Source of the DNA: Dehalococcoidia bacterium
Lineage (GTDB): Bacteria; Chloroflexota; Dehalococcoidia; Lucifugimonadales; UBA3495
DNA length: 64,000 nucleotides
Assembly: GCA_965261945.1 (NCBI GenBank)
Contig: CBDHEF010000002.1
Location: 591,327 to 655,326 of the forward strand
Direction: 5' to 3'
Positions 2,819-13,485 of the stretch are shown here, one piece after another (the first letter of the stretch is position 1; every line of letters begins with the position of its first letter). The notes under the pieces were generated by a model, which did no database searches, was not told where the DNA came from, and was given only the letters and a program-made list of their open reading frames with translations. The position numbers and the translations under genes were made by a program.

Positions 2819-4198
2819 CTAGCCTCGCAGGGTAGCCGTGCCCTCATATTCCATGACCTTCGGCTCCAGCGGGATGTCCTCCCAGTTCCCGGCGTTCATG
2901 AACTGCTCCCAGCGTTGGTAAAACAGTCGCTGGTTGCTCTCCGAAGTGTAGCGTTCCGCCACCACGCCGGGAAAGTCTGGATGTCGGCGGTCGTGGCCTA
3001 ATCCCATGGAGAGATCTTGCGCGTACCTGCGCCCTATTGGGCTGAGGGCGGAGTTGGTCACGCCGCGCCAGTTGTCCATGTCATCCTGCTCGAAGATGCC
3101 GTTGACGCCGTTATAGTTGGAGCTGCCCCGGCGCAGGGCGGTCTTCAGGTCTTCCGGCATATCCTTTTCCAGCACCACGAAGTGCCAGAATTCGGTTTGC
3201 AGAGGGCCACGTGGGTGGGCCAGGCGCAGGCCGAGGACGCCATTGGGAAACAGGCTGTGGTTGCCCAGTTGCAGCCGACGCGCCCGCAGGTTGCCCAGAC
3301 GGCGCTCCGACTCGGCCAGCGTCCGGCGATAATACTCCTCGAAAGCCTCACGGTTTTCGGCGGTGATGCCGTGTGTCTGCCGCGCCTGGTCGGCCCGCTC
3401 CAGAAACCGCATGGTCAGCGAATGGCCGTTGACGAACAGGTGTTTGCTCTCCGACTGGAACTGCGCCTCGTGGGTCAGCCGTGGAATGCCGCTGTGCCGC
3501 CCCTGCACGATGATGGCAGACAGGTGCGTTGTGGGGACGTGATAGTTGTCGGAGCAGTTGTCCACTGCCGTCTTCCAGTTCACCGGCTCCAGCCACTTGA
3601 TGGGGCCCAGTGCCTCGGTGCCGTTATCCAGGCGGTTGAACGATACGTCCAGCAACCAGCGGGCGTCGCCCAGGTAGTCGTCCAGGCTGGGCGCGCTCTG
3701 GTCCCAGGTGGCGAATACGATGCCGGCGTAGGTATCCAGGCGAGCCTCCACCAGCCGCAGGCGCTCTCGGTCAAGCGCGCCGTAATATGCCTCCTCCTCC
3801 CCTGGGAGATACTCCAGCTCGCCCTGATTGGAGTAGGTCCAGCCGTGATAGGCGCAGGCGAAGTTGCGGGCGTTGCCGGCGTCGGTGCGGACGATGCGGT
3901 TGCCCCGGTGGCGGCACATATTCAGGAAAGCCCGCAGGTGGCCCTGGCCGTCGCGGCAGAGTATGACCGGCTCTTCACCCATGTAGGTGTGGAAGAAGTC
4001 GTTGGGCTTCGGCGCCAACGACTCGTGGCCGATCATCAGCCAGGCCCGCCCGAACACCTTCTCCTGCTCCTCGGCATAGATGTCCGGGTCAACGAAAATA
4101 CGCCGGTCAAGCTGGCCTGTTTCGAGGTCAATAATCTGATGTTTCCGGCCAGTGGCAACCATTTCGGCACCCCTGCTAGGCATGGATAGCGGCTCCAT
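2819..4198 (-). CDS. Rieske [2Fe-2S] aromatic ring-hydroxylating dioxygenase, alpha subunit
   Basis: Rieske motif CRHRGNRIV..17..CAYHGW. A catalytic domain with His-containing DNYHVPTTH follows. An alternative start at ATG 4162 (MVATGRKHQ...) has a better RBS. Confidence 0.9.
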   Translation of the reverse strand: MEPLSMPSRGAEMVATGRKHQIIDLETGQLDRRIFVDPDIYAEEQEKVFGRAWLMIGHESLAPKPNDFFHTYMGEEPVILCRDGQGHLRAFLNMCRHRGNRIVRTDAGNARNFACAYHGWTYSNQGELEYLPGEEEAYYGALDRERLRLVEARLDTYAGIVFATWDQSAPSLDDYLGDARWLLDVSFNRLDNGTEALGPIKWLEPVNWKTAVDNCSDNYHVPTTHLSAIIVQGRHSGIPRLTHEAQFQSESKHLFVNGHSLTMRFLERADQARQTHGITAENREAFEEYYRRTLAESERRLGNLRARRLQLGNHSLFPNGVLGLRLAHPRGPLQTEFWHFVVLEKDMPEDLKTALRRGSSNYNGVNGIFEQDDMDNWRGVTNSALSPIGRRYAQDLSMGLGHDRRHPDFPGVVAERYTSESNQRLFYQRWEQFMNAGNWEDIPLEPKVMEYEGTATLRG

Positions 4199-4283
4199 TC
4201 AACAGTATCAATCATCCGGTGCATTCTGTCCATTGGTGTAGTAGAGTATGGAAAATTCAAACACGCCAGTAACGGGGGCCGGC

Positions 4284-5369
4284 ATGAAGTTCGGAATCTT
4301 TACCATAGTCCCTTACCACGAGGACTTCACCCAGCAGCAGGCGCTGAACGACGCGCTGGAGCAGATCGTATACGCCGACGAAATGGGCATCGAGGAGGCC
4401 TGGCTGGGTGAACACCGCTTTTCGCGGCATGGTCTTCTTTCGGGCATCTGGTCGTTCCTGGGGGCAGTCGCCGGGCGCACCAAGAACATCCGCATCGGAA
4501 CGGCGGTCATCGTTCTGCCGCTGCACAACCCGGTGCTGGTGGCCGAGGAGGTGGCTATGCTGGACGTCATCAGCAACGGCCGCTTCAACTTCGGCATCGG
4601 CGCCGGCTACCAGCAGCAGGAGTTCGACGGCGTGGGGGTTGACATAGACACCAGCCGCGAGCGGTTCCAGGAGGCGGTCGACGTCATCATCAAGGCATGG
4701 ACCGAGGAGCGGCTGACGTTCCACGGCAAGTACACCAATGTTGACGACCTCTGGGTGCTGCCCAAGCCGGTCCAGAAGCCATATCCGCCTCTGTTCCAGG
4801 CCGTCAGCACCAGCCCGGCCAGCATTGACTTCGCCGCGAGCCGCAAGATTCAGGTGATCGCGGGCGGCCCCACTGACATCCTCGGCCAGGCCCCCCAGGT
4901 AATCAAGCTGTGGCGCGACAAGATGGATGAGTACGGGCATCCCCACGCTCACCTCGACCCGCCGATGTCCAAGTCCATTTACGTGGCCCCGACCATGGAA
5001 GAAGCCGAGCGCGACCCCGTCGGCCTTGAGGACTTCTCGTCGCGCATTCTGCGTTCCGCAGGCAGCAACGGCGCGCCCATCGGGATGCCCGTGGACAAGA
5101 ACGGGAAAGTCGCCAAGGGCTACGAGCATTGGGCCAACCGCCAGAGCGACCGCGACCGCCGCGACGACGTGGGCCACGCTGGGCTGCCGCCCCTCCGCGG
5201 CACACCGGAGGTGGTGGTCGAGCGCCTGAAGGAGACGCAAGAGGCGGGCATCAACCATGTTTTCGGCAACTTCGGATTCGCCGGCCTGCCCCACTGGAAG
5301 GTGATGCGCTCCATAGAGCTGTTCGCCACCGAAGTCATGCCCCACTTCAAGGAAGCCCCCGTAGTTTAG
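4284..5369 (+). CDS. LLM-class (luciferase-like) flavin-dependent monooxygenase/oxidoreductase
   Basis: MKFGIFT...LEQIVYADEMGIEEAWLGEHRF...VLPLHNPVLVAEEVAMLDVISNGRFNFGIGAGY is the canonical LLM pattern. The upstream ATG 4248 is also possible. Confidence 0.85.
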   Translation: MKFGIFTIVPYHEDFTQQQALNDALEQIVYADEMGIEEAWLGEHRFSRHGLLSGIWSFLGAVAGRTKNIRIGTAVIVLPLHNPVLVAEEVAMLDVISNGRFNFGIGAGYQQQEFDGVGVDIDTSRERFQEAVDVIIKAWTEERLTFHGKYTNVDDLWVLPKPVQKPYPPLFQAVSTSPASIDFAASRKIQVIAGGPTDILGQAPQVIKLWRDKMDEYGHPHAHLDPPMSKSIYVAPTMEEAERDPVGLEDFSSRILRSAGSNGAPIGMPVDKNGKVAKGYEHWANRQSDRDRRDDVGHAGLPPLRGTPEVVVERLKETQEAGINHVFGNFGFAGLPHWKVMRSIELFATEVMPHFKEAPVV

Positions 5370-5487: not shown

Positions 5488-6333
5488 ATGACTACCTCGA
5501 TTTTCACTGAAGAATCCACCAGCAAGACCGTCATGGTGGGCGATATACCAGTGCATTTTCATGACGTTGGCGAGGGCGACCCGGTGTTCATGCTTCATTC
5601 CTATGGCCCAGGCACTACCGGCTGGATAACCTTTCACAAGATACTGCCCGCCTTCGCCCGGCGCTACCGCTGCATCGTGATGGACCTGCCCAACTTCGGG
5701 CGCACCGGGCCGGTGGTCTACAACGAGCCGCTGCACAACCTCCAGGCCCGCACAGCTCTTGGCCTGATGGACGCCTTGGGTATCGAAAAAGCGCACCTCG
5801 TCGGCAACTCGCAGGGTGGGCAGTCGGCGATGGTGCTGGCGATGAAGGAGCCGCAGCGGGTGGACAAGCTGGTGTTCGGCGCCTGCCACATCAAGACCGG
5901 CGGCGACCTGTACCTGATGGGCAACCGCCCGTCAGAGGGCAGCCTGGTTACCCGCGAGGTGCGGGACAACCCCACCCACGACAACGTGCGCCGCTACCTG
6001 CGGACGCACATCGACGACAACGCGCTGGTCACCGAGGAGTTGGTGGACTACATCCACAACAACTACACCGGCAACCCCGACCACATCAAGGCCGACGCCG
6101 AATCAGTCAGCGTGCCCTACGACCACGGGGTTGACCTGCCCAACATAACGGCCCCCAGCCTGATCATCTGGGGGCGCTACGACCGGATGTGCGTTTTCGA
6201 AATCGGCATCGCCGCCCTGAACAACCTAGAAGACTCCCGCCTGGTCCTGCTGAACAACTGCGGCCACTGGGTTCCCTTCGAGAAACCGCGGGAGTACGCC
6301 TCCCACGTGCTGACCTTCCTGCGCGGCGGGTAG
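5488..6333 (+). CDS. Alpha/beta hydrolase, meta-cleavage-product (BphD/TodF-like) C-C hydrolase family
   Basis: HG-type oxyanion region FMLHSYGPG, nucleophile elbow GNSQGG, and C-terminal NNCGHWVPFEKP with the catalytic His. It neighbours the Rieske dioxygenase. Confidence 0.8.
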   Translation: MTTSIFTEESTSKTVMVGDIPVHFHDVGEGDPVFMLHSYGPGTTGWITFHKILPAFARRYRCIVMDLPNFGRTGPVVYNEPLHNLQARTALGLMDALGIEKAHLVGNSQGGQSAMVLAMKEPQRVDKLVFGACHIKTGGDLYLMGNRPSEGSLVTREVRDNPTHDNVRRYLRTHIDDNALVTEELVDYIHNNYTGNPDHIKADAESVSVPYDHGVDLPNITAPSLIIWGRYDRMCVFEIGIAALNNLEDSRLVLLNNCGHWVPFEKPREYASHVLTFLRGG

Positions 6334-6355
6334 GGACGCTGTTACCTGGGATGAG

Positions 6356-6772
6356 TCATTCGCTGGATCCGTTGCGGCCGGACTCCTCGACCTCGTTGAT
6401 GTACTCTTCCAACTCGCTGAAATAGCGGGGCATATCGTCGAACTCGACGATGCCTTCGTAGTATCCAAAGATGTGGAAGGTTTGCCGGATGTAAATGTAG
6501 TTTTTCACCATTGCGCGATCCATATACTTGCCGGCAAAATAATATCTCCCCCGGTCGTTTTCAGGCAACTCCGATTCTGGTACGCCTTGTATCAGAAAGT
6601 AACAGTTGGTGGACTCCAAGGCTGCCAGCCAGCCCTTCCCGCAGGCATTCCGCAGTCCGATTACTGCCGCGCCGCCCTTGGCTTCCTCCGCACGGGCGAA
6701 TTCTTCGCGCCCTGCCTGCAACAGTTCGCGCGCCAGATTCAGCCGGTTGTCAATCAATTGAACCATATTCAC
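6356..6772 (-). CDS. Hypothetical helical protein, PaREP1/DUF5618/HEPN-fold-like (function unknown)
   Basis: 138-aa ORF in a low-GC patch (42-50% in two lines counted). KGWLAALEST...IRQTFHIFGYYEG resembles the two conserved helices of PaREP1-type HEPN-fold proteins. This assignment is from memory only. Confidence 0.45.
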   Translation of the reverse strand: MNMVQLIDNRLNLARELLQAGREEFARAEEAKGGAAVIGLRNACGKGWLAALESTNCYFLIQGVPESELPENDRGRYYFAGKYMDRAMVKNYIYIRQTFHIFGYYEGIVEFDDMPRYFSELEEYINEVEESGRNGSSE

Positions 6773-9653: not shown

Positions 9654-10619
9654 CTATGGCGTCAGTATGACCTTGCCCCGGGTGCCGCGATTGGCCAGGT
9701 GCTGGTGAGCGGTGGCAACTTCGGACATGGGCAGAACCTGGTCAACCACCAGCCGCGCCTTGCCGTCTGCCAGCAGCGGGAAGATTTCGGCCATGGCGGC
9801 CTGATGGTCCAACGTGCCCTGAGGGGAGCGACCGATGCTGAACCCGATGACCGTGCGGTTGGCCGCGAATATCTCGACTGCCGGCAGGTTGGCCGGGGTG
9901 CCGGAGGCGTTGCCGTAGGTGATCATCCGGCCGTAGGAGGCGACGCAGCGCAGGCTCTTCTCCAGCACCGGGCCGCCGACACATTCCAGAATCAGCTCCA
10001 CGCCGTTTCCGCCGGTCTGCTCGCTGATGACTTCCTCGAAGTCCTGCTCGGTGTAGTTGATGGTCTCGTCGGCGCCCAGAGAGCGGCACAGGTCCAGCTT
10101 CTCCTGGGTGGATGCGGTGGCGATAACGCGGGCGCCCCAAGCCTTGGCGAACTGGATGGCCACGGTGCCCACGCCCGAGGCTCCGGCCTGGATCAGCACG
10201 GTATGCCCCGGCTCCAGTTGCCCGCGGGTCTTCAGCAGATGATAGGCCGTCAGGAATACGATGGGCATTCCGCCGGCCTGCACCGGGTCAACGGTTTCGG
10301 GGTAGGGGAAGACGAAGTTGCCGTTGACCGCGACCAGCTCGGCCTGCCCGCCCGGCCCCATCGCCATCACCCGCTGCCCCACGGACAGCCCGGTGACCTC
10401 GGAGCCGACCTCAACCACCGTTCCCGCCGCCTCCAGTCCCAGTGACGATGGCAGGTCGGGGCCGGGATAGTTGCCGCCCCGTCGCATCAGGTCGGCGTAG
10501 TTCACCCCGGCGGAGTCCACTTTGATAAGCACTTGGTGGGGGCGCGGCTCGGGGTCTGGGGCGTTCTCCCAGTTGAGCACGTCGAGGCCGCCGAATTCGT
10601 GGATGCGTACAGCTTTCAT
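9654..10619 (-). CDS. NADPH:quinone oxidoreductase / zeta-crystallin-type MDR dehydrogenase
   Basis: MKAVRIHEFGG.DVL..E..P.P..HQVLIKVDSAGVNYADLMRRGG.YP and the nucleotide-binding stretch LIQAGASGVGTVAIQ. Confidence 0.85.
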   Translation of the reverse strand: MKAVRIHEFGGLDVLNWENAPDPEPRPHQVLIKVDSAGVNYADLMRRGGNYPGPDLPSSLGLEAAGTVVEVGSEVTGLSVGQRVMAMGPGGQAELVAVNGNFVFPYPETVDPVQAGGMPIVFLTAYHLLKTRGQLEPGHTVLIQAGASGVGTVAIQFAKAWGARVIATASTQEKLDLCRSLGADETINYTEQDFEEVISEQTGGNGVELILECVGGPVLEKSLRCVASYGRMITYGNASGTPANLPAVEIFAANRTVIGFSIGRSPQGTLDHQAAMAEIFPLLADGKARLVVDQVLPMSEVATAHQHLANRGTRGKVILTP

Positions 10620-10654
10620 GTATGCGTTTCTCCTGATATTATGACGTCTCCTTG

Positions 10655-11308
10655 TTATTGAACCGGAGAGCGGCGGAATAGTCCCGTGACTGCGGCATTC
10701 TGTACATCTGTACTGAATCGGTCAACCAACTGAATTACTTCACTGTGCAGCACATCGTAGTCATCTGAGTCAATCTCCACTCGCTCGCCGTGGGCTACGC
10801 GGTTCCTGTTAGATAACAACTTTTCATCCAGCAAAGGGCCTTTGGATAAGTAGTCTCTCTCATCCAGCCCCAACAGCGTCAAGATTTCTCTCAACGTTTC
10901 GGCGTTCAGGTTAGAGCGAGTGTTAACCGAATTCCGCCAATCTATTTCGGCATTGTCAGACAAATCAGACACCAGTCTTGCCACAATACCTGTATGGCTG
11001 GTCGGGTGGTTAGATTGCCCGGCTTCCCGAATCTCCGTGCGTAACCCTAAAGCCACGAAGTTGGGAGTGAGGTCGCGGTACCTCAGCCCACGGGTTGCGA
11101 TGAAGGAGATATAGCTGGTTGCTGCTGTCTTTACAAACCCTTCCCAATGAGCGTAAAGGAGGCAGACTGCGGCTCGCAGCAATAGCCCCCGCTGATGCCT
11201 GCGGGGATTCTTCTCCTGCATTAACTTCAGGGTTGTCAACTCTCTTTTACGCCATGCTAAATCATCGTCCAATACCTGTACCAGTTGGTCTAATGAGCGT
11301 ATCCTCAT
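10655..11308 (-). CDS. HEPN-domain protein (RiboL-PSP / MAE_28990-MAE_18760-like), predicted RNase
   Basis: 217 aa and all-helical. The N-terminus DLAWRKRELTTL..AHWEGF and the C-terminal Rx4H motif RNRVAH-G are present. Its ATG overlaps the stop of the upstream DUF262 gene (ATGA at 11305-11308). The region is low-GC. Confidence 0.7.
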   Translation of the reverse strand: MRIRSLDQLVQVLDDDLAWRKRELTTLKLMQEKNPRRHQRGLLLRAAVCLLYAHWEGFVKTAATSYISFIATRGLRYRDLTPNFVALGLRTEIREAGQSNHPTSHTGIVARLVSDLSDNAEIDWRNSVNTRSNLNAETLREILTLLGLDERDYLSKGPLLDEKLLSNRNRVAHGERVEIDSDDYDVLHSEVIQLVDRFSTDVQNAAVTGLFRRSPVQ

Positions 11309-12417
11309 AGGTCGAACAGTTGGCGCCCGAGCGGAATGTTAAAGCGCAATCTGGCCCGCGTGTCCACACCGCTACCGTTGTGGGATAAGAATTCAGGGTT
11401 GTCCCATAACCCTCTGCCTGTGTCTTCGACTTCCTGGAGCGGCATATTGCTGTCGTAGGATGCCACGTTATGACCGATCCCGAGAGCTATAGATTCAAAC
11501 GCCGAGATTAGAAATCCGCCAAGGTGCTTGCCTTTAACGAGGTCATATTTCCGAAAACTACGCTCTTCCAGCGAATTTGCCAGCCAGTCAAACGTAGATT
11601 TGAACACCGATCCCTCTCTTTCTCGCAATGCTTGAAAATCATCAGCTTGGGCCATTTCAGAAATTCGGTCGGTGAGAAAATCACCTATATTTCCCACAGA
11701 ACGTAGTTCGTTTTCTTCGATGTTTCGGAACACTAGAAATCGTGTAACCAGTTCAAGGTCGTATCGCTCACTCAGCATCTTGTCTGACAAGACGATGCAA
11801 GCCTGAAAGTTCTCGTCTTGAGCCAACTCCGATATCCATCGGTAAGCGTCGGGATTGACCGTGATTAGGATTACGTTTCTGACTTCTTGGTCGGACAATT
11901 GAGATCCACCAGTGTTGAGCCGCTGGAACAGCTCGTACTTGCTCGACTCACTGCTCTCCCGTAGGATTATCTTAACGTCGATTTTCGAGCGCCTAATGAG
12001 TAGCCGGTTTGTGTTTCCTATGGATATAGCAGGGTTGTCGTCTTCCCATTTTTTCCCGTCCATCGAGGGTAAGTACCTAGTTTTTCTTAGTGTTAAGGGT
12101 GGAAATATCTCGCTGTTGTCTTTCTTGAGAATGCCAACCAACTCGAATATGGTGGAGAGTCTTTGCAACCCGTCAATCACGTCCCACACTCCGTCCTCTC
12201 TCTGGGACACGAAAATTGACGGCAGAGGAATGCCCAGCAGAATGGACTCGATGAGCCGGGATTTTTGCTCATCACTCCACCGAAAAAACCGCTGAAATTC
12301 AGGATGTATGTCCATCTCATCGGCTTGGTAGACACTGATGAGTTCTCCGATGGACATCGGGTAGCCGTCGCTGCGTATTTCCGCGCGCCTGTCTTTTATT
12401 TCTTGATCCAGGCTCAT
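11305..12417 (-). CDS. DUF262 (ParB-like / GmrSD N-terminal-type) domain protein lacking a DUF1524/HNH nuclease domain
   Basis: IHPEFQRFFRWSDEQKSRLIESILLGIPLPSIFV...WDVIDGLQRLSTI (FQR and DGxQR motifs) and FQRLNTGGSQLSDQE are present. At 370 aa there is no room for a C-terminal His-Me finger domain. I counted about 47-50% GC over three 60-nt lines, versus about 62% in the flank. Confidence 0.85.
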   Translation of the reverse strand: MSLDQEIKDRRAEIRSDGYPMSIGELISVYQADEMDIHPEFQRFFRWSDEQKSRLIESILLGIPLPSIFVSQREDGVWDVIDGLQRLSTIFELVGILKKDNSEIFPPLTLRKTRYLPSMDGKKWEDDNPAISIGNTNRLLIRRSKIDVKIILRESSESSKYELFQRLNTGGSQLSDQEVRNVILITVNPDAYRWISELAQDENFQACIVLSDKMLSERYDLELVTRFLVFRNIEENELRSVGNIGDFLTDRISEMAQADDFQALREREGSVFKSTFDWLANSLEERSFRKYDLVKGKHLGGFLISAFESIALGIGHNVASYDSNMPLQEVEDTGRGLWDNPEFLSHNGSGVDTRARLRFNIPLGRQLFDL

Positions 12418-12462
12418 CTCTGAAACTCCTTCTTCAACTTACCCAGCGATTGAGATTGCATC

Positions 12463-13449
12463 CTACTGATACCCCCGGAACTGCGGGGCGGTCAGCACAT
12501 CCCCGTTGATCATCCGCACCGGCTCGCCGCTGGCGAAGGCGCGAATGTCCTCGACTACCCCCGCGTACATGGCGGTGTATGAATCGTCGGTTACGTAGCC
12601 CAAGTGGGGGCAGATCAGCGTGTTGTCCAGTTGCAGCAGTGGATGGCCTTCCGGCAGCGGCTCCACGTCGAAGGTGTCCAGCGCGGCGCCGGCGATGGCC
12701 CTGCGTTGCAGCGCGTCCACCAGCGCGGCCTCGTCCACGATGGGGCCGCGCGAGATGTTGACCAGATAGGCCGTCGATTTCATCAGGGCCAATTCGTGGG
12801 TCCCCACCAGTCCCCGGGTACGCTGTCCAAGCACCAAATGGACCGACAGGATGTCCGAATCACGGAACAGCGCATCCTTGTCCACCAGTGTGGCGCCACA
12901 CTCGCGGGCGCGTTCTGCGGTCAGGTTCTGGCTCCACGCGATGATGTTCATATCAAAGGCAGTGGCGACCCGCGCCACCAGCGAGCCGATATGACCCAGC
13001 CCCAGCAGTCCGATGGTCTTGCCCTTCAGGCCCATGCCGACAGTGGCGCCCCACTTGCCTTCCCGCGAAAGCCGGTCTTCCAAGGGAATCTGCCTCACGA
13101 TGCCAAGAATTAGGCCCCAGGTCAGCTCCGTCGGCCCCTCGCCCGCGCCGTCGGTGCCGCAGACGGCGAGGCCAAGGTCGGTTGCCGCCTGGATGTCGAA
13201 CGAGGCGTTTCGCCGCCCGGTGGTGACCAGCAAACGCAGGTTGGGCAGGCGCTCCAGCAGCGAGCGTTGGAAGGGAGTGCGCTCCCGCATACCCATAACA
13301 ACGTCGAAACCGGACAGACGCTCAACCAGGGCATCCTCGCTGGCCAGGTGGTCGCTGAAAAAAGTGACTTCGGCGCCGGGCGGCAACTGCGACCAGTCTG
13401 CCAGGCTTTCGGCGACGCTTTGGTAGTCGTCAAGAACCGCGACTTTCAT
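12463..13449 (-). CDS. D-isomer-specific 2-hydroxyacid dehydrogenase family protein
   Basis: NAD-binding GKTIGLLGLGHIGSLVA plus the catalytic R..E..H region (ISRGPIVDE...CPHLGY). GAGGA RBS precedes ATG 13449 (the ORF-track start 13464 is TTG). Confidence 0.85.
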   Translation of the reverse strand: MKVAVLDDYQSVAESLADWSQLPPGAEVTFFSDHLASEDALVERLSGFDVVMGMRERTPFQRSLLERLPNLRLLVTTGRRNASFDIQAATDLGLAVCGTDGAGEGPTELTWGLILGIVRQIPLEDRLSREGKWGATVGMGLKGKTIGLLGLGHIGSLVARVATAFDMNIIAWSQNLTAERARECGATLVDKDALFRDSDILSVHLVLGQRTRGLVGTHELALMKSTAYLVNISRGPIVDEAALVDALQRRAIAGAALDTFDVEPLPEGHPLLQLDNTLICPHLGYVTDDSYTAMYAGVVEDIRAFASGEPVRMINGDVLTAPQFRGYQ

Positions 13450-13485
13450 TTTGACAGTCCTCAATATGGGCTTCGGATTGGGGAT

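Follow-up and report, generated by a model that had tools for sequence, protein, structure and literature searches.

A DUF262–HEPN gene cassette in a probable Dehalococcoidia genome, apparently a divergent relative of the PD-T4-2 phage-defence pair

Introduction

A cassette of two overlapping genes, encoding a DUF262 protein (A) and a small HEPN protein (B), lies between two dehydrogenase genes in the 64-kb stretch of DNA analysed here (the window). To judge from profile matches and alignments, it is a divergent and widespread relative of the known PD-T4-2 kind and not a new type of system. The most probable reading, to which we give a probability of about 0.6, is that the cassette is a PD-T4-2-type anti-phage/anti-MGE module in which A acts as a sensor or switch and B as an abortive HEPN RNase.

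PD-T4-2 originates from E. coli ECOR65, and Vassallo et al. 2022 describe it as 'DUF262, HEPN'. Its defence against T4 was validated both in K-12 and, through a deletion, in the strain of origin; in the authors' HHpred analysis, the top matches were PF03235 for its A protein and PF18735/PF18737 for its B protein. Later papers treat PD-T4-2 as a named DUF262 system, and nothing published on its mechanism, trigger or RNA target was found in the searchable literature.

Organization of the cassette

The cassette, its junctions and its flanking genes are as follows.

12463..13464, minus strand: upstream flank, D-2-hydroxyacid dehydrogenase gene (Pfam 2-Hacid_dh_C, 1.7e-55), outside the system
12418..12462, minus strand: upstream junction of 45 bp, between the 2-hydroxyacid dehydrogenase stop and the start of A, with an AAGGAG Shine-Dalgarno sequence
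11305..12417, minus strand: gene A, an ORF for a 370-aa DUF262 (ParB/Srx-fold NTPase) protein with a helical C-terminal half and without a nuclease domain
11305..11308, minus strand: ATGA stop/start overlap of A and B, read from the sequence
10655..11308, minus strand: gene B, an ORF for a 217-aa all-helical HEPN protein of the RiboL-PSP / MAE_28990 group, predicted RNase effector
10620..10654, minus strand: downstream junction of 35 bp, between the stop of B and the start of the Zn-ADH gene, with an AGGAG Shine-Dalgarno sequence
9654..10619, minus strand: downstream flank, Zn-dependent ADH gene of the quinone-oxidoreductase type (ADH_zinc_N 5.3e-33, ADH_N 1.7e-18), outside the system

Direct reading places the TGA stop of A at 11307-11305 and the ATG start of B at 11308-11306, an overlap that implies translational coupling of A and B. 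A 4-nt A/B overlap is also called in the relatives L001 and L004-L009. The two minus-strand genes of 370 and 217 aa with their ATGA overlap, as described in an earlier note on this DNA, are thus borne out by both the ORFs and direct reading, and the 35-bp and 45-bp spacers that it had placed between two dehydrogenase genes are exact.

A scan of both spacers for promoters and terminators returned no site, and the region as a whole contained 3 promoter-like and 7 terminator-like sites, compared with 1.5 +/- 1.1 and 3.3 +/- 1.7, respectively, in shuffles. The cassette is probably read along with the surrounding co-directional gene array. In the relatives L001 and L014, the stop of B overlaps the start of the ADH gene.

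Protein A

The features of A discussed below are the following, the three motifs having been checked by translation.

11866..12336, minus strand: DUF262 / GmrSD_N domain, residues 28-184 (Pfam envelope)
12277-12294, minus strand: motif I, QRFFRW
12160-12174, minus strand: motif II, DGLQR
11914-11928, minus strand: motif III, FQRLN
11317..11892, minus strand: all-helical C-terminal half, residues 176-367 (DSSP of the model)
11368..11520, minus strand: hypervariable patch, approximately residues 300-350 (sliding-window identity)

Protein A matches the Pfam family GmrSD_N/PF03235 (DUF262) at 3.2e-26 over residues 28-184, and no Pfam match to DUF1524 (PF07510) was found in it at E<=0.1, as the earlier note had expected for the whole DUF1524/His-Me domain. 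The definitions of the DUF262 motifs I-III, like the concept of the ParBDB domain, are those of PMC12065111. In an alignment of 42 homologues, residues W47, D82, G83, L84, Q85, R86, F164, R166 and N168 are invariant, Q42 and R43 being nearly so. These motifs suggest that A has NTPase activity.

The AF2 model of A (pLDDT 82.6) has a C-terminal half that DSSP describes as all helix except for two short strands. Foldseek of this model retrieves BrxU (7p9k, 6e-5) as best match, followed by CTP-ParB/Noc/KorB structures; by sequence, the match of A to BrxU is marginal (E 0.37 in a PDB sequence search), and PDB sequence searches with A and B gave no informative match. Among the PADLOC models, A is matched by NsnA (1.1e-56), by PD-T4-2_A (3.9e-28) and, weakly, by SspE and HEC-05/06. 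The alignments to the NsnA and PD-T4-2_A profiles reach into the helical half, which probably corresponds to the ParBDB-type, putatively DNA-binding domain of NsnA, GmrSD-M and SspE-M.

The hypervariable patch lies within the helical half. In most close relatives its identity falls to 40-60% in the sliding window, and the A3 consensus contains stretches without a majority residue there. One relative has a patch that is 88-100% identical, yet its B is only 80% identical, and another with a 93% identical B has a patch that is only 50% identical. In these alignments, the patch varies independently of B.

Protein B

Two features of B were checked by translation.

11135..11152, minus strand: AHWEGF helix, which contains E56
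10790..10807, minus strand: HEPN Rx4H catalytic motif RNRVAH (R168...H173)

Protein B matches the Pfam families HEPN_RiboL-PSP (PF18735) at 2.3e-36 and HEPN_MAE_28990 (PF18737) at 1.6e-33. These scores and the Pfam score of A, together with the translated motifs, confirm the DUF262 and HEPN identities proposed in the earlier note. Conversely, the NCBIfam search that it had suggested matched neither A nor B. The RefSeq name 'MAE_28990/MAE_18760 family HEPN-like nuclease' is carried by plasmid homologues of B, beside a 'DUF262 domain-containing protein'.

R168 and H173 are invariant across the window-type (i.e. like the pair in the window) and the E. coli PD-T4-2-like B proteins; in an alignment of 32 homologues, H173 is invariant and R168 nearly so. 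E56 is invariant in every type of B aligned, and H54, W55, E56, G57 and F58 are invariant within the window-type family. The AF2 model of B (pLDDT 90, pTM 0.87) is all-alpha, RNRVAH (168-173) standing at the end of a helix that spans residues 157-172. In BFVD, this model is closest to a phage 'MAE-28990/MAE-18760-like HEPN' protein (TM 0.69-0.72); searches of the PDB by sequence and by fold (Foldseek) gave no significant match, nor did the PADLOC models at E<=0.1. B is thus a protein of the HEPN superfamily with an Rx4H motif in an all-alpha core, and its motifs predict RNase activity.

Pairing and spread

Among 80 species-level loci, 79 have A as the gene immediately upstream of B. In the only exception, the two genes are separated by an IS1595 element (transposase); all 80 loci carry or once carried the adjacent pair. 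Furthermore, only seven plasmids match B; these are the top seven matches of A, and the two genes are adjacent in each of them. A and B are therefore an obligate module, and the conservation of both families as neighbours, a check put forward in the earlier note, was found at the loci as well as on the plasmids.

Window-type HEPN relatives occur in at least 546 species, and loci with the pair come from Chloroflexota, Cyanobacteria, Planctomycetota, Acidobacteriota and other groups. Related pairs are carried by plasmids of Pseudomonadota, Actinomycetota, Bacillota and Spirochaetota, by one temperate phage, of Terrisporobacter, and by a P2-like prophage, in which the pair lies between CI and integrase. 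Two plasmid pairs adjoin R-M genes of the BsuBI/PstI family. In an IncX1 plasmid of E. coli and in a Psychrobacter plasmid the pair directly follows the replication-initiator gene, and in Corynebacterium it lies near ParA/RepA. DUF262 relatives are present on hundreds of Escherichia plasmids; in 5,426 E. coli genomes, blastn detected no match to the B gene.

The immediate neighbours of the window-type pair are mixed (Uma2 in 14, pheS in 8 and RecQ in 4 of 136) and belong for the most part to housekeeping or various other categories, and not to defence; PADLOC matches among them are largely cross-matches to helicases. Siting in defence islands, for which the earlier note had proposed an enrichment check, was rejected for the window-type pair, the first neighbours being heterogeneous and showing no enrichment in defence genes.

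Acquisition and maintenance of the cassette

The low GC content reported in the earlier note is real: the cassette has a GC content of 0.496, whereas the remaining segments of its size (1763 bp) in the 64-kb stretch have 0.625 +/- 0.019 (z = -6.8) and nowhere fall below 0.568. GC3 is 0.57 in both A and B vs 0.76-0.85 in four neighbouring genes. In seven related contigs, located through the downstream Zn-ADH gene, the 2-hydroxyacid dehydrogenase and ADH genes are directly adjacent. Because relatives have this empty site, the two genes were neighbours ancestrally and the cassette came in between them. Its horizontal acquisition, which the earlier note had proposed from its position and composition, is thus shown by the empty sites. 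No convincing target-site duplications, terminal inverted repeats, tRNA or integrase were found at the insertion, and the short repeats present there are all chance-like.

The pair is kept at the same 2-hydroxyacid dehydrogenase/ADH site in six species. In the clade that shares the insertion, dN/dS is about 0.11 for A and B, a rough value as dS is about 1.1-1.7 and many A/B pairs are saturated, and dN is about three times that of the flanks. This points to purifying selection on both genes. The trees are NJ trees without support values. The relatives with 85-93% identical flanking proteins are all Dehalococcoidia/Chloroflexota MAGs, and the host genome is a probable member of the Dehalococcoidia (Chloroflexota). 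The cassette may have been captured recurrently at one intergenic site without mobility genes, and may have kept its foreign GC content over a long residence.

Proposed function and alternative explanations

In the preferred explanation, that of a PD-T4-2-type defence module, A would be a sensor or switch whose ParB/Srx-fold DUF262 head would bind and hydrolyse NTP and whose helical ParBDB-like half would bind DNA, as in BrxU, GmrSD and SspE. A might respond to a phage factor or to foreign DNA, which may be modified; by changing its conformation in an NTP-dependent manner, it would then release or activate B. As a dimeric HEPN RNase, B would cleave RNA (tRNA, rRNA or mRNA), so that translation would stop and the infection be aborted. 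An RNase acting in trans would thus take the place of the cis DUF1524 DNase of GmrSD-type enzymes, the hypervariable patch near the C-terminus of A being a candidate specificity surface. A further step, to which we give limited credence, is that the window-type pair is functionally distinct from PD-T4-2, an NTP switch gating the trans RNase and the patch of A reading a phage-specific cue.

An alternative that we regard as unlikely is a toxin–antitoxin (TA) or addiction module, in which B would be a constitutively toxic HEPN RNase neutralised by A; the pair would stabilise the replicon or region that carries it, and phage defence would be secondary. Both the gene order, with the putative antitoxin first, and the ATGA overlap are as is usual in type II TA operons, and this explanation would suit the pairs beside replication-initiator genes on the IncX1 and Psychrobacter plasmids and near ParA/RepA in Corynebacterium, the DUF262 relatives on so many Escherichia plasmids, and the persistence of the pair in six species at a single chromosomal site whose context reveals no benefit. 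Anantharaman et al. proposed an analogous logic of NTPase antitoxin and HEPN toxin for the ParA-MAE_18760 dyads. However, A, with 370 aa, two domains and invariant NTPase motifs, is unlike small labile antitoxins. Moreover, the relative that has been tested, PD-T4-2, is validated as phage defence, and its authors leave it out of their list of TA-like systems. As roles in TA and abortive infection are not mutually exclusive, the disagreement is partly a difference of emphasis.

A type IV-restriction-like system, which we hold to be improbable, would make A itself a 'ParB nuclease' whose substrate is foreign or modified DNA and would reduce B to an accessory or back-up RNase or a regulator. The 2013 HEPN survey uses the term 'ParB nuclease' and reports a link with DNA methylase genes, two plasmid pairs adjoin R-M genes of the BsuBI/PstI family, the closest solved structural relative of A is the type IV enzyme BrxU, and PD-T4-2 was selected on T4, a glucosyl-hmC phage. 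In the GmrSD family, however, DUF262 is the NTPase/sensor and cleavage resides in DUF1524, whereas A has neither DUF1524 nor another nuclease domain; the invariant Rx4H motif argues that B is an active enzyme and not a scaffold, and methylase genes are not frequent among the 136 immediate-neighbour genes sampled. Very improbable, finally, is a domesticated host function outside any conflict, such as RNA processing or regulation by a pair that is expressed together with the dehydrogenases on either side. The embedding of the pair in a co-directional array, where the short spacers hold Shine-Dalgarno sites but no promoter or terminator, would fit such a function, as would the purifying selection, the site shared by six species and the overlap of the B stop with the ADH start in L001 and L014. 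Nevertheless, close relatives have the site empty, the pair is spread patchily over many phyla in unrelated contexts and is carried by plasmids, a phage and a prophage, its GC content is persistently foreign, and it evolves three times faster than its flanks and includes a hypervariable patch.

Implications

The DUF262 + HEPN pairs form a phage-defence class that is validated but mechanistically blank, and their architecture is far commoner than the E. coli prototype suggests. As the PADLOC PD-T4-2 models miss most pairs and the NsnA model cross-matches them, defence censuses under-count such pairs and may mis-seed searches for Menshen. The cassette also illustrates that such a module is able to sit stably in a housekeeping gene array, outside defence islands, in slow-growing environmental lineages. 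The discrete hypervariable patch of A is a concrete target for experiments on specificity. If the window-type pair were a distinct system that works in the way outlined above, it would provide a first worked case of RNA cleavage under the control of a ParB-type nucleotide switch, and this would explain why DUF262 is combined with DNases (GmrSD), with ATPase-RNase pairs (Menshen) and with HEPN proteins.

Comparison with known systems

In GmrSD, BrxU and SspE, as in A, a DUF262 NTPase head with a DGxQR motif is followed by a helical middle domain. DUF262 is described in these three systems as an NTPase sensor that drives the effector, and DNA cleavage by the characterised GmrSD-family enzymes resides in DUF1524 (PMC10952713, PMC12065111). 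In contrast with these proteins, which possess a DUF1524 His-Me/HNH nuclease, A has none, and no GmrD gene is adjacent to it. Here a HEPN RNase encoded by its own gene would serve as the effector, and its target is therefore predicted to be RNA instead of DNA.

The ParB-HEPN operon was catalogued in 2013 by Anantharaman et al., in a comparative-genomic study without experiments. The linkage of DUF262/ParB with HEPN that the earlier note attributed to HEPN surveys is indeed present there: the operons of MAE_28990 / RiboL-PSP HEPN genes with ParB genes associate the same families as the cassette. The methylase link of these authors is not general here; it corresponds to two plasmid contexts, and the frequent neighbours do not include methylases.

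Menshen (NsnA-NsnB-NsnC; Millman 2022; Li et al. 2025) encodes, with NsnA, the best PADLOC match of A. NsnA and A share the architecture of a ParB-DUF262 domain with a helical ParBDB-type domain and have three motifs in common, and in both systems a DUF262 sensor is proposed to work with an RNase effector. However, the NsnB gene (ABC-ATPase/DUF3696) is absent here and in relatives, A being followed by the HEPN gene and then by the Zn-ADH gene. NsnC, made of an inPIN N-domain and a nuclease C-domain, is also absent, B being a single-domain HEPN protein without a PADLOC NsnC match, and the main text of the Menshen survey contains no occurrence of HEPN. Membership in Menshen, suggested by the strong NsnA match, is ruled out by the absence of NsnB and NsnC. 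Furthermore, the NsnA model outscores PD-T4-2_A on bona fide DUF262+HEPN pairs of E. coli too; therefore, an NsnA match reflects a broad model of the A family and not membership in Menshen.

The comparison with PD-T4-2 was made with the PADLOC profiles and three E. coli relatives, not the ECOR65 sequences themselves. The E. coli pairs with which A aligns over its full length match PD-T4-2_A at 1.8e-55 and PD-T4-2_B at 1.4e-8. For A, BLASTP detects about 35% identity to the PD-T4-2-like A proteins in the DUF262 head only, but the PADLOC PD-T4-2_A profile aligns residues 23-343 with positions 40-335 of 363, and hhalign aligns residues 14-363, i.e. the full length, with the E. coli proteins at 99.7%. 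For B, there is no pairwise (BLASTP) similarity to the PD-T4-2-like B proteins, and hhalign gives a probability of 51% over 39 columns around the Rx4H helix. The two B proteins are thus related at the family level only, and the window B differs by an insertion of about 40 residues before Rx4H. The PADLOC PD-T4-2_B model does not match it, so PADLOC would not call the locus, and transfer of function from PD-T4-2 rests on A and on the shared Pfam membership of B. Pairs from E. coli plasmids themselves have a weak match (4.4e-4) or no match to PD-T4-2_B, which indicates that this model is narrow. The hosts also differ, a Chloroflexota-like chromosome here vs an enterobacterial mobile element for PD-T4-2.

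Like the cassette, PD-T4-2 is a two-gene operon in which a DUF262 protein of about 340-385 aa without DUF1524 precedes a small HEPN protein; the Rx4H motif and the Glu of helix 1 are conserved in both types of B, and each type of pair is found on mobile elements. The earlier note knew of no characterised system of such composition, an opinion that PD-T4-2, a validated 'DUF262, HEPN' pair, contradicts. Its question whether the pair maps to a named system receives a divided answer, since the composition is that of PD-T4-2 but the PADLOC models do not call the locus. Likewise, its label 'uncharacterised' holds for the mechanism and fails for the existence and the defence function of such pairs, both of which PD-T4-2 had already established.

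Organization of the cassette

The window carries two overlapping genes, hereafter A and B:

11305–12417, minus strand: A, ORF encoding a 370-aa DUF262 protein
10655–11308, minus strand: B, ORF encoding a 217-aa HEPN protein

Direct reading confirmed the ATGA overlap reported in the earlier note, the TGA stop codon of A (11307–11305) being interlocked with the ATG of B (11308–11306), and translation recovered the motifs listed there (QRFFRW, DGLQR and FQRLN in A; AHWEGF and RNRVAH in B). The family assignments also held, as A matches Pfam GmrSD_N/DUF262 (3.2e-26, residues 28–184) and gives no Pfam match to DUF1524, while B matches both HEPN_RiboL-PSP (2.3e-36) and HEPN_MAE_28990 (1.6e-33). The low GC content attributed to the cassette was found over its whole length (0.496 vs 0.625 ± 0.019 in all other same-size windows, z = −6.8). 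No other part of the 64-kb window deviates as strongly in composition, 11001–12000 (GC 0.503) being its sole kilobase below 0.56, and the GC3 of the cassette is 0.57 versus 0.76–0.85 in the neighbouring genes.

The flanking genes do encode dehydrogenases, as proposed, namely a D-2-hydroxyacid dehydrogenase and a Zn-ADH/quinone-oxidoreductase-type protein, and the spacers on either side of the cassette are exactly 45 and 35 bp. Both spacers contain a Shine-Dalgarno-like AGGAG; a promoter/terminator scan of the two gave no match. In a syntenic relative (L001/L014; L001:6001-7649), the 228-aa HEPN gene stops 4 nt within the Zn-ADH start (6684–6687), and the cassette is translationally contiguous with the downstream host gene. 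Elsewhere in the window, the only Rfam match is a PyrR binding-site RNA (RF00515; 24677–24799, plus strand; 57.6 bits vs a gathering score of 54), and ARAGORN detected neither tRNA nor tmRNA genes across the 64 kb.

Features of the two proteins

In the AF2 model of A (pLDDT 82.6), an alpha/beta head precedes an all-helical half. The best match of this model in a fold search of the PDB is BrxU (6e-5), a GmrSD-family type IV enzyme, followed by the CTP-binding N-domains of ParB, Noc and KorB. The three DUF262 motifs described in the literature, QRxxxW, DGxQR and FxxxN (PMC12065111), are invariant or nearly so across 42 A homologues. The ParBDB-type domain of NsnA, GmrSD-M and SspE-M has its counterpart in the helical half, which may bind DNA. 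This half includes a hypervariable patch (residues ~300–350, window 11368–11520) that is 40–60% identical in most close relatives. One relative with B at 80% identity retains 88–100% identity in the patch, and the one with B at 93% identity has only 50% there; the similarity of the patch is thus uncoupled from that of B, which indicates mosaic evolution independent of B and makes the patch a handle for experiments.

The model of B is confidently all-helical (pLDDT 90, pTM 0.87). Neither sequence nor fold searches of the PDB gave informative matches; the best match among viral predicted structures is a phage MAE_28990-like HEPN protein (TM about 0.7). R168 and H173 of the Rx4H motif, together with E56, are conserved throughout the aligned B proteins, the most distant ones included.

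Pairing and distribution

Homologues of B exceed 1000, are about 215 aa long and all carry both HEPN Pfam domains; those of A number thousands, the closest ones being uniformly 370 aa. When one genome per species was scanned, at least 546 proved to encode a B relative; of the best 80 loci among these, 79 have an A homologue immediately 5' of B. At the remaining locus (L031), an IS1595-family transposase gene (4158–5183; DDE_Tnp_IS1595, 1.5e-39) separates A (2893–4005) from B (6043–6642), which begins there at a downstream ATG and encodes 199 aa. Chromosomal copies are found, among others, in many Dehalococcoidia/Chloroflexota MAGs, many cyanobacteria, Planctomycetota, Acidobacteriota, Bacteroidota and Thiomargarita. 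B relatives occur on only seven of 72,556 plasmids, from Psychrobacter (two records), Corynebacterium (two), Bacillus cereus, Enterobacter cloacae and Leptospira. The seven best-scoring A matches fall on precisely these plasmids, where A and B are always adjacent. A temperate phage of Terrisporobacter also has the pair. A and B therefore constitute an obligate and widespread module. On the Leptospira noguchii plasmid (L152:4989-6101), A is annotated as a 'DUF262 domain-containing protein' plus a 'hypothetical protein' and is probably disrupted, the downstream HEPN gene being intact.

Genomic context

The immediate neighbours of window-type pairs are heterogeneous: among 136 genes sampled, 14 encode Uma2-type nucleases, eight are pheS and four encode RecQ, the others being single metabolic genes. 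As a rule the pair is isolated rather than part of a defence island, and its context on mobile elements is more telling than on chromosomes. Indeed, it adjoins BsuBI/PstI-family restriction-modification genes on two unrelated plasmids, from Psychrobacter (L012:6774-9190) and B. cereus (L151:2459-4966). It lies directly 3' of a replication-initiator gene on an E. coli IncX1 plasmid (L011:2001-4515) and on the Psychrobacter plasmid (L012:3885-6759), and an E. coli P2-like prophage (L013) harbours a pair in an accessory slot. DUF262 relatives were detected by tblastn on 520 Escherichia plasmid records. The Psychrobacter plasmid also carries an Eco57I-type methylase gene; the B. cereus element encodes an AimR arbitrium receptor, which suggests that it is a phage-plasmid.

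Acquisition and evolution

The same two dehydrogenase genes bracket the pair in six Dehalococcoidia species (L014–L017, L021 and L030), whose flanking proteins are 72–93% identical to those of the window. In seven related metagenome contigs the site is empty, the 2-hydroxyacid-DH gene being followed by the ADH gene after a 21–104 nt spacer. This establishes the horizontal insertion suspected from the sequence alone; the cassette is a real pair of functional genes that was inserted horizontally. Its boundaries are marked neither by an integrase or tRNA nor by target-site duplications or terminal inverted repeats.

In a tree of the flanks, the window groups with L014–L017 and L030 in a single filled clade, and the lineages sister to it have empty sites. 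L021 is filled too but belongs to a different clade, next to an empty contig (comparison with L104, L105 and L110), and its cassette clusters with cassettes of other genomic sites. As this neighbour-joining tree carries no support values, these data only suggest two acquisitions at the same 2-hydroxyacid-DH/Zn-ADH site, without mobility genes; flank-mediated recombination is perhaps the route of repeated capture.

Within the filled clade, dN/dS is about 0.11 for A and B, a ratio that is rough because dS is near saturation and that denotes purifying selection; dN reaches 0.18 and 0.23 for the cassette genes versus 0.06–0.075 for the flanks (about threefold faster). In each of the 80 loci (L014–L093), the cassette has a lower GC content than its flanks, by about 0.02 to 0.21. 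This deficit persists across the six species sharing the insertion, diverged to dS > 1, and therefore the cassette has not ameliorated towards host composition.

Putative function

By analogy with the DUF262 domains of GmrSD, BrxU and SspE, A could act as an NTP-dependent sensor or switch on DNA that would license B, a predicted HEPN RNase, to cut RNA and arrest translation; an RNase provided in trans would thus replace the DUF1524 DNase found in cis. We assign this defence model, the most likely one, a probability of about 0.6. A toxin–antitoxin or addiction role, which is compatible with defence, is a less probable explanation. DNA targeting, with A itself as the nuclease, appears unlikely, and a domesticated role outside genetic conflicts very improbable. 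The literature searched, up to mid-2026, contains no report of a trigger, target or structure for any DUF262-HEPN pair.

Relationships with known systems

The linkage of DUF262 and HEPN genes mentioned in the earlier note is catalogued in the 2013 HEPN survey, which lists RiboL-PSP and MAE_28990 HEPN genes 'in operon with ParB' (Anantharaman et al.). PADLOC matches A to NsnA of Menshen (1.1e-56) and to PD-T4-2_A (3.9e-28), and gives no match for B. Menshen requires the ABC-ATPase NsnB and the inPIN-nuclease NsnC; it was excluded, despite the NsnA match, because both are absent from the locus.

The view that no system of this composition had been characterised must be abandoned. Indeed, PD-T4-2 from E. 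coli ECOR65, labelled 'DUF262, HEPN' by its authors, was validated in K-12, and T4 plaqued again on the native strain once the system was deleted; in the authors' HHpred analysis, A fell in PF03235 and B in PF18735/PF18737 (Vassallo 2022). Later papers (including PMC10952713) group it with GmrSD, SspE, Dazbog and Menshen, as an uncharacterised DUF262 system without DUF1524.

The window pair agrees with PD-T4-2 in composition. The comparison was made through PADLOC profiles and three E. coli DUF262 + RiboL-PSP-HEPN pairs, used in place of the ECOR65 sequences. These pairs are located on a 3.9-kb plasmid, on the IncX1 plasmid and in the CI/integrase interval of the P2-like prophage (L013:3916-5686; 384 and 211 aa, 20-nt overlap); a related DUF262 gene is present on about ten complete E. 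coli chromosomes. The prophage pair matches PD-T4-2_A (1.8e-55) and PD-T4-2_B (1.4e-8). The E. coli pairs score higher for NsnA than for PD-T4-2_A and two of the three barely match or miss PD-T4-2_B; the PADLOC PD-T4-2 models are narrow.

The E. coli A proteins align with window A over its full length (hhalign 99.7%, residues 14–363). In contrast, BLASTP found no similarity between window B and prophage B, the profile match of window B is limited to 39 columns around the Rx4H helix (51% probability), and window B carries an insertion of about 40 residues. Given full-length homology of A, distant B proteins and narrow models, the window pair represents a divergent subfamily within the same architecture: by composition and A homology it belongs to the PD-T4-2 kind, but it would not be called under the operational definition of PADLOC. 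This kind is already known, named and experimentally validated; what is new here is the divergent subfamily, whose main value lies in its breadth, in the gap that it reveals in detection models and in its hypervariable patch.
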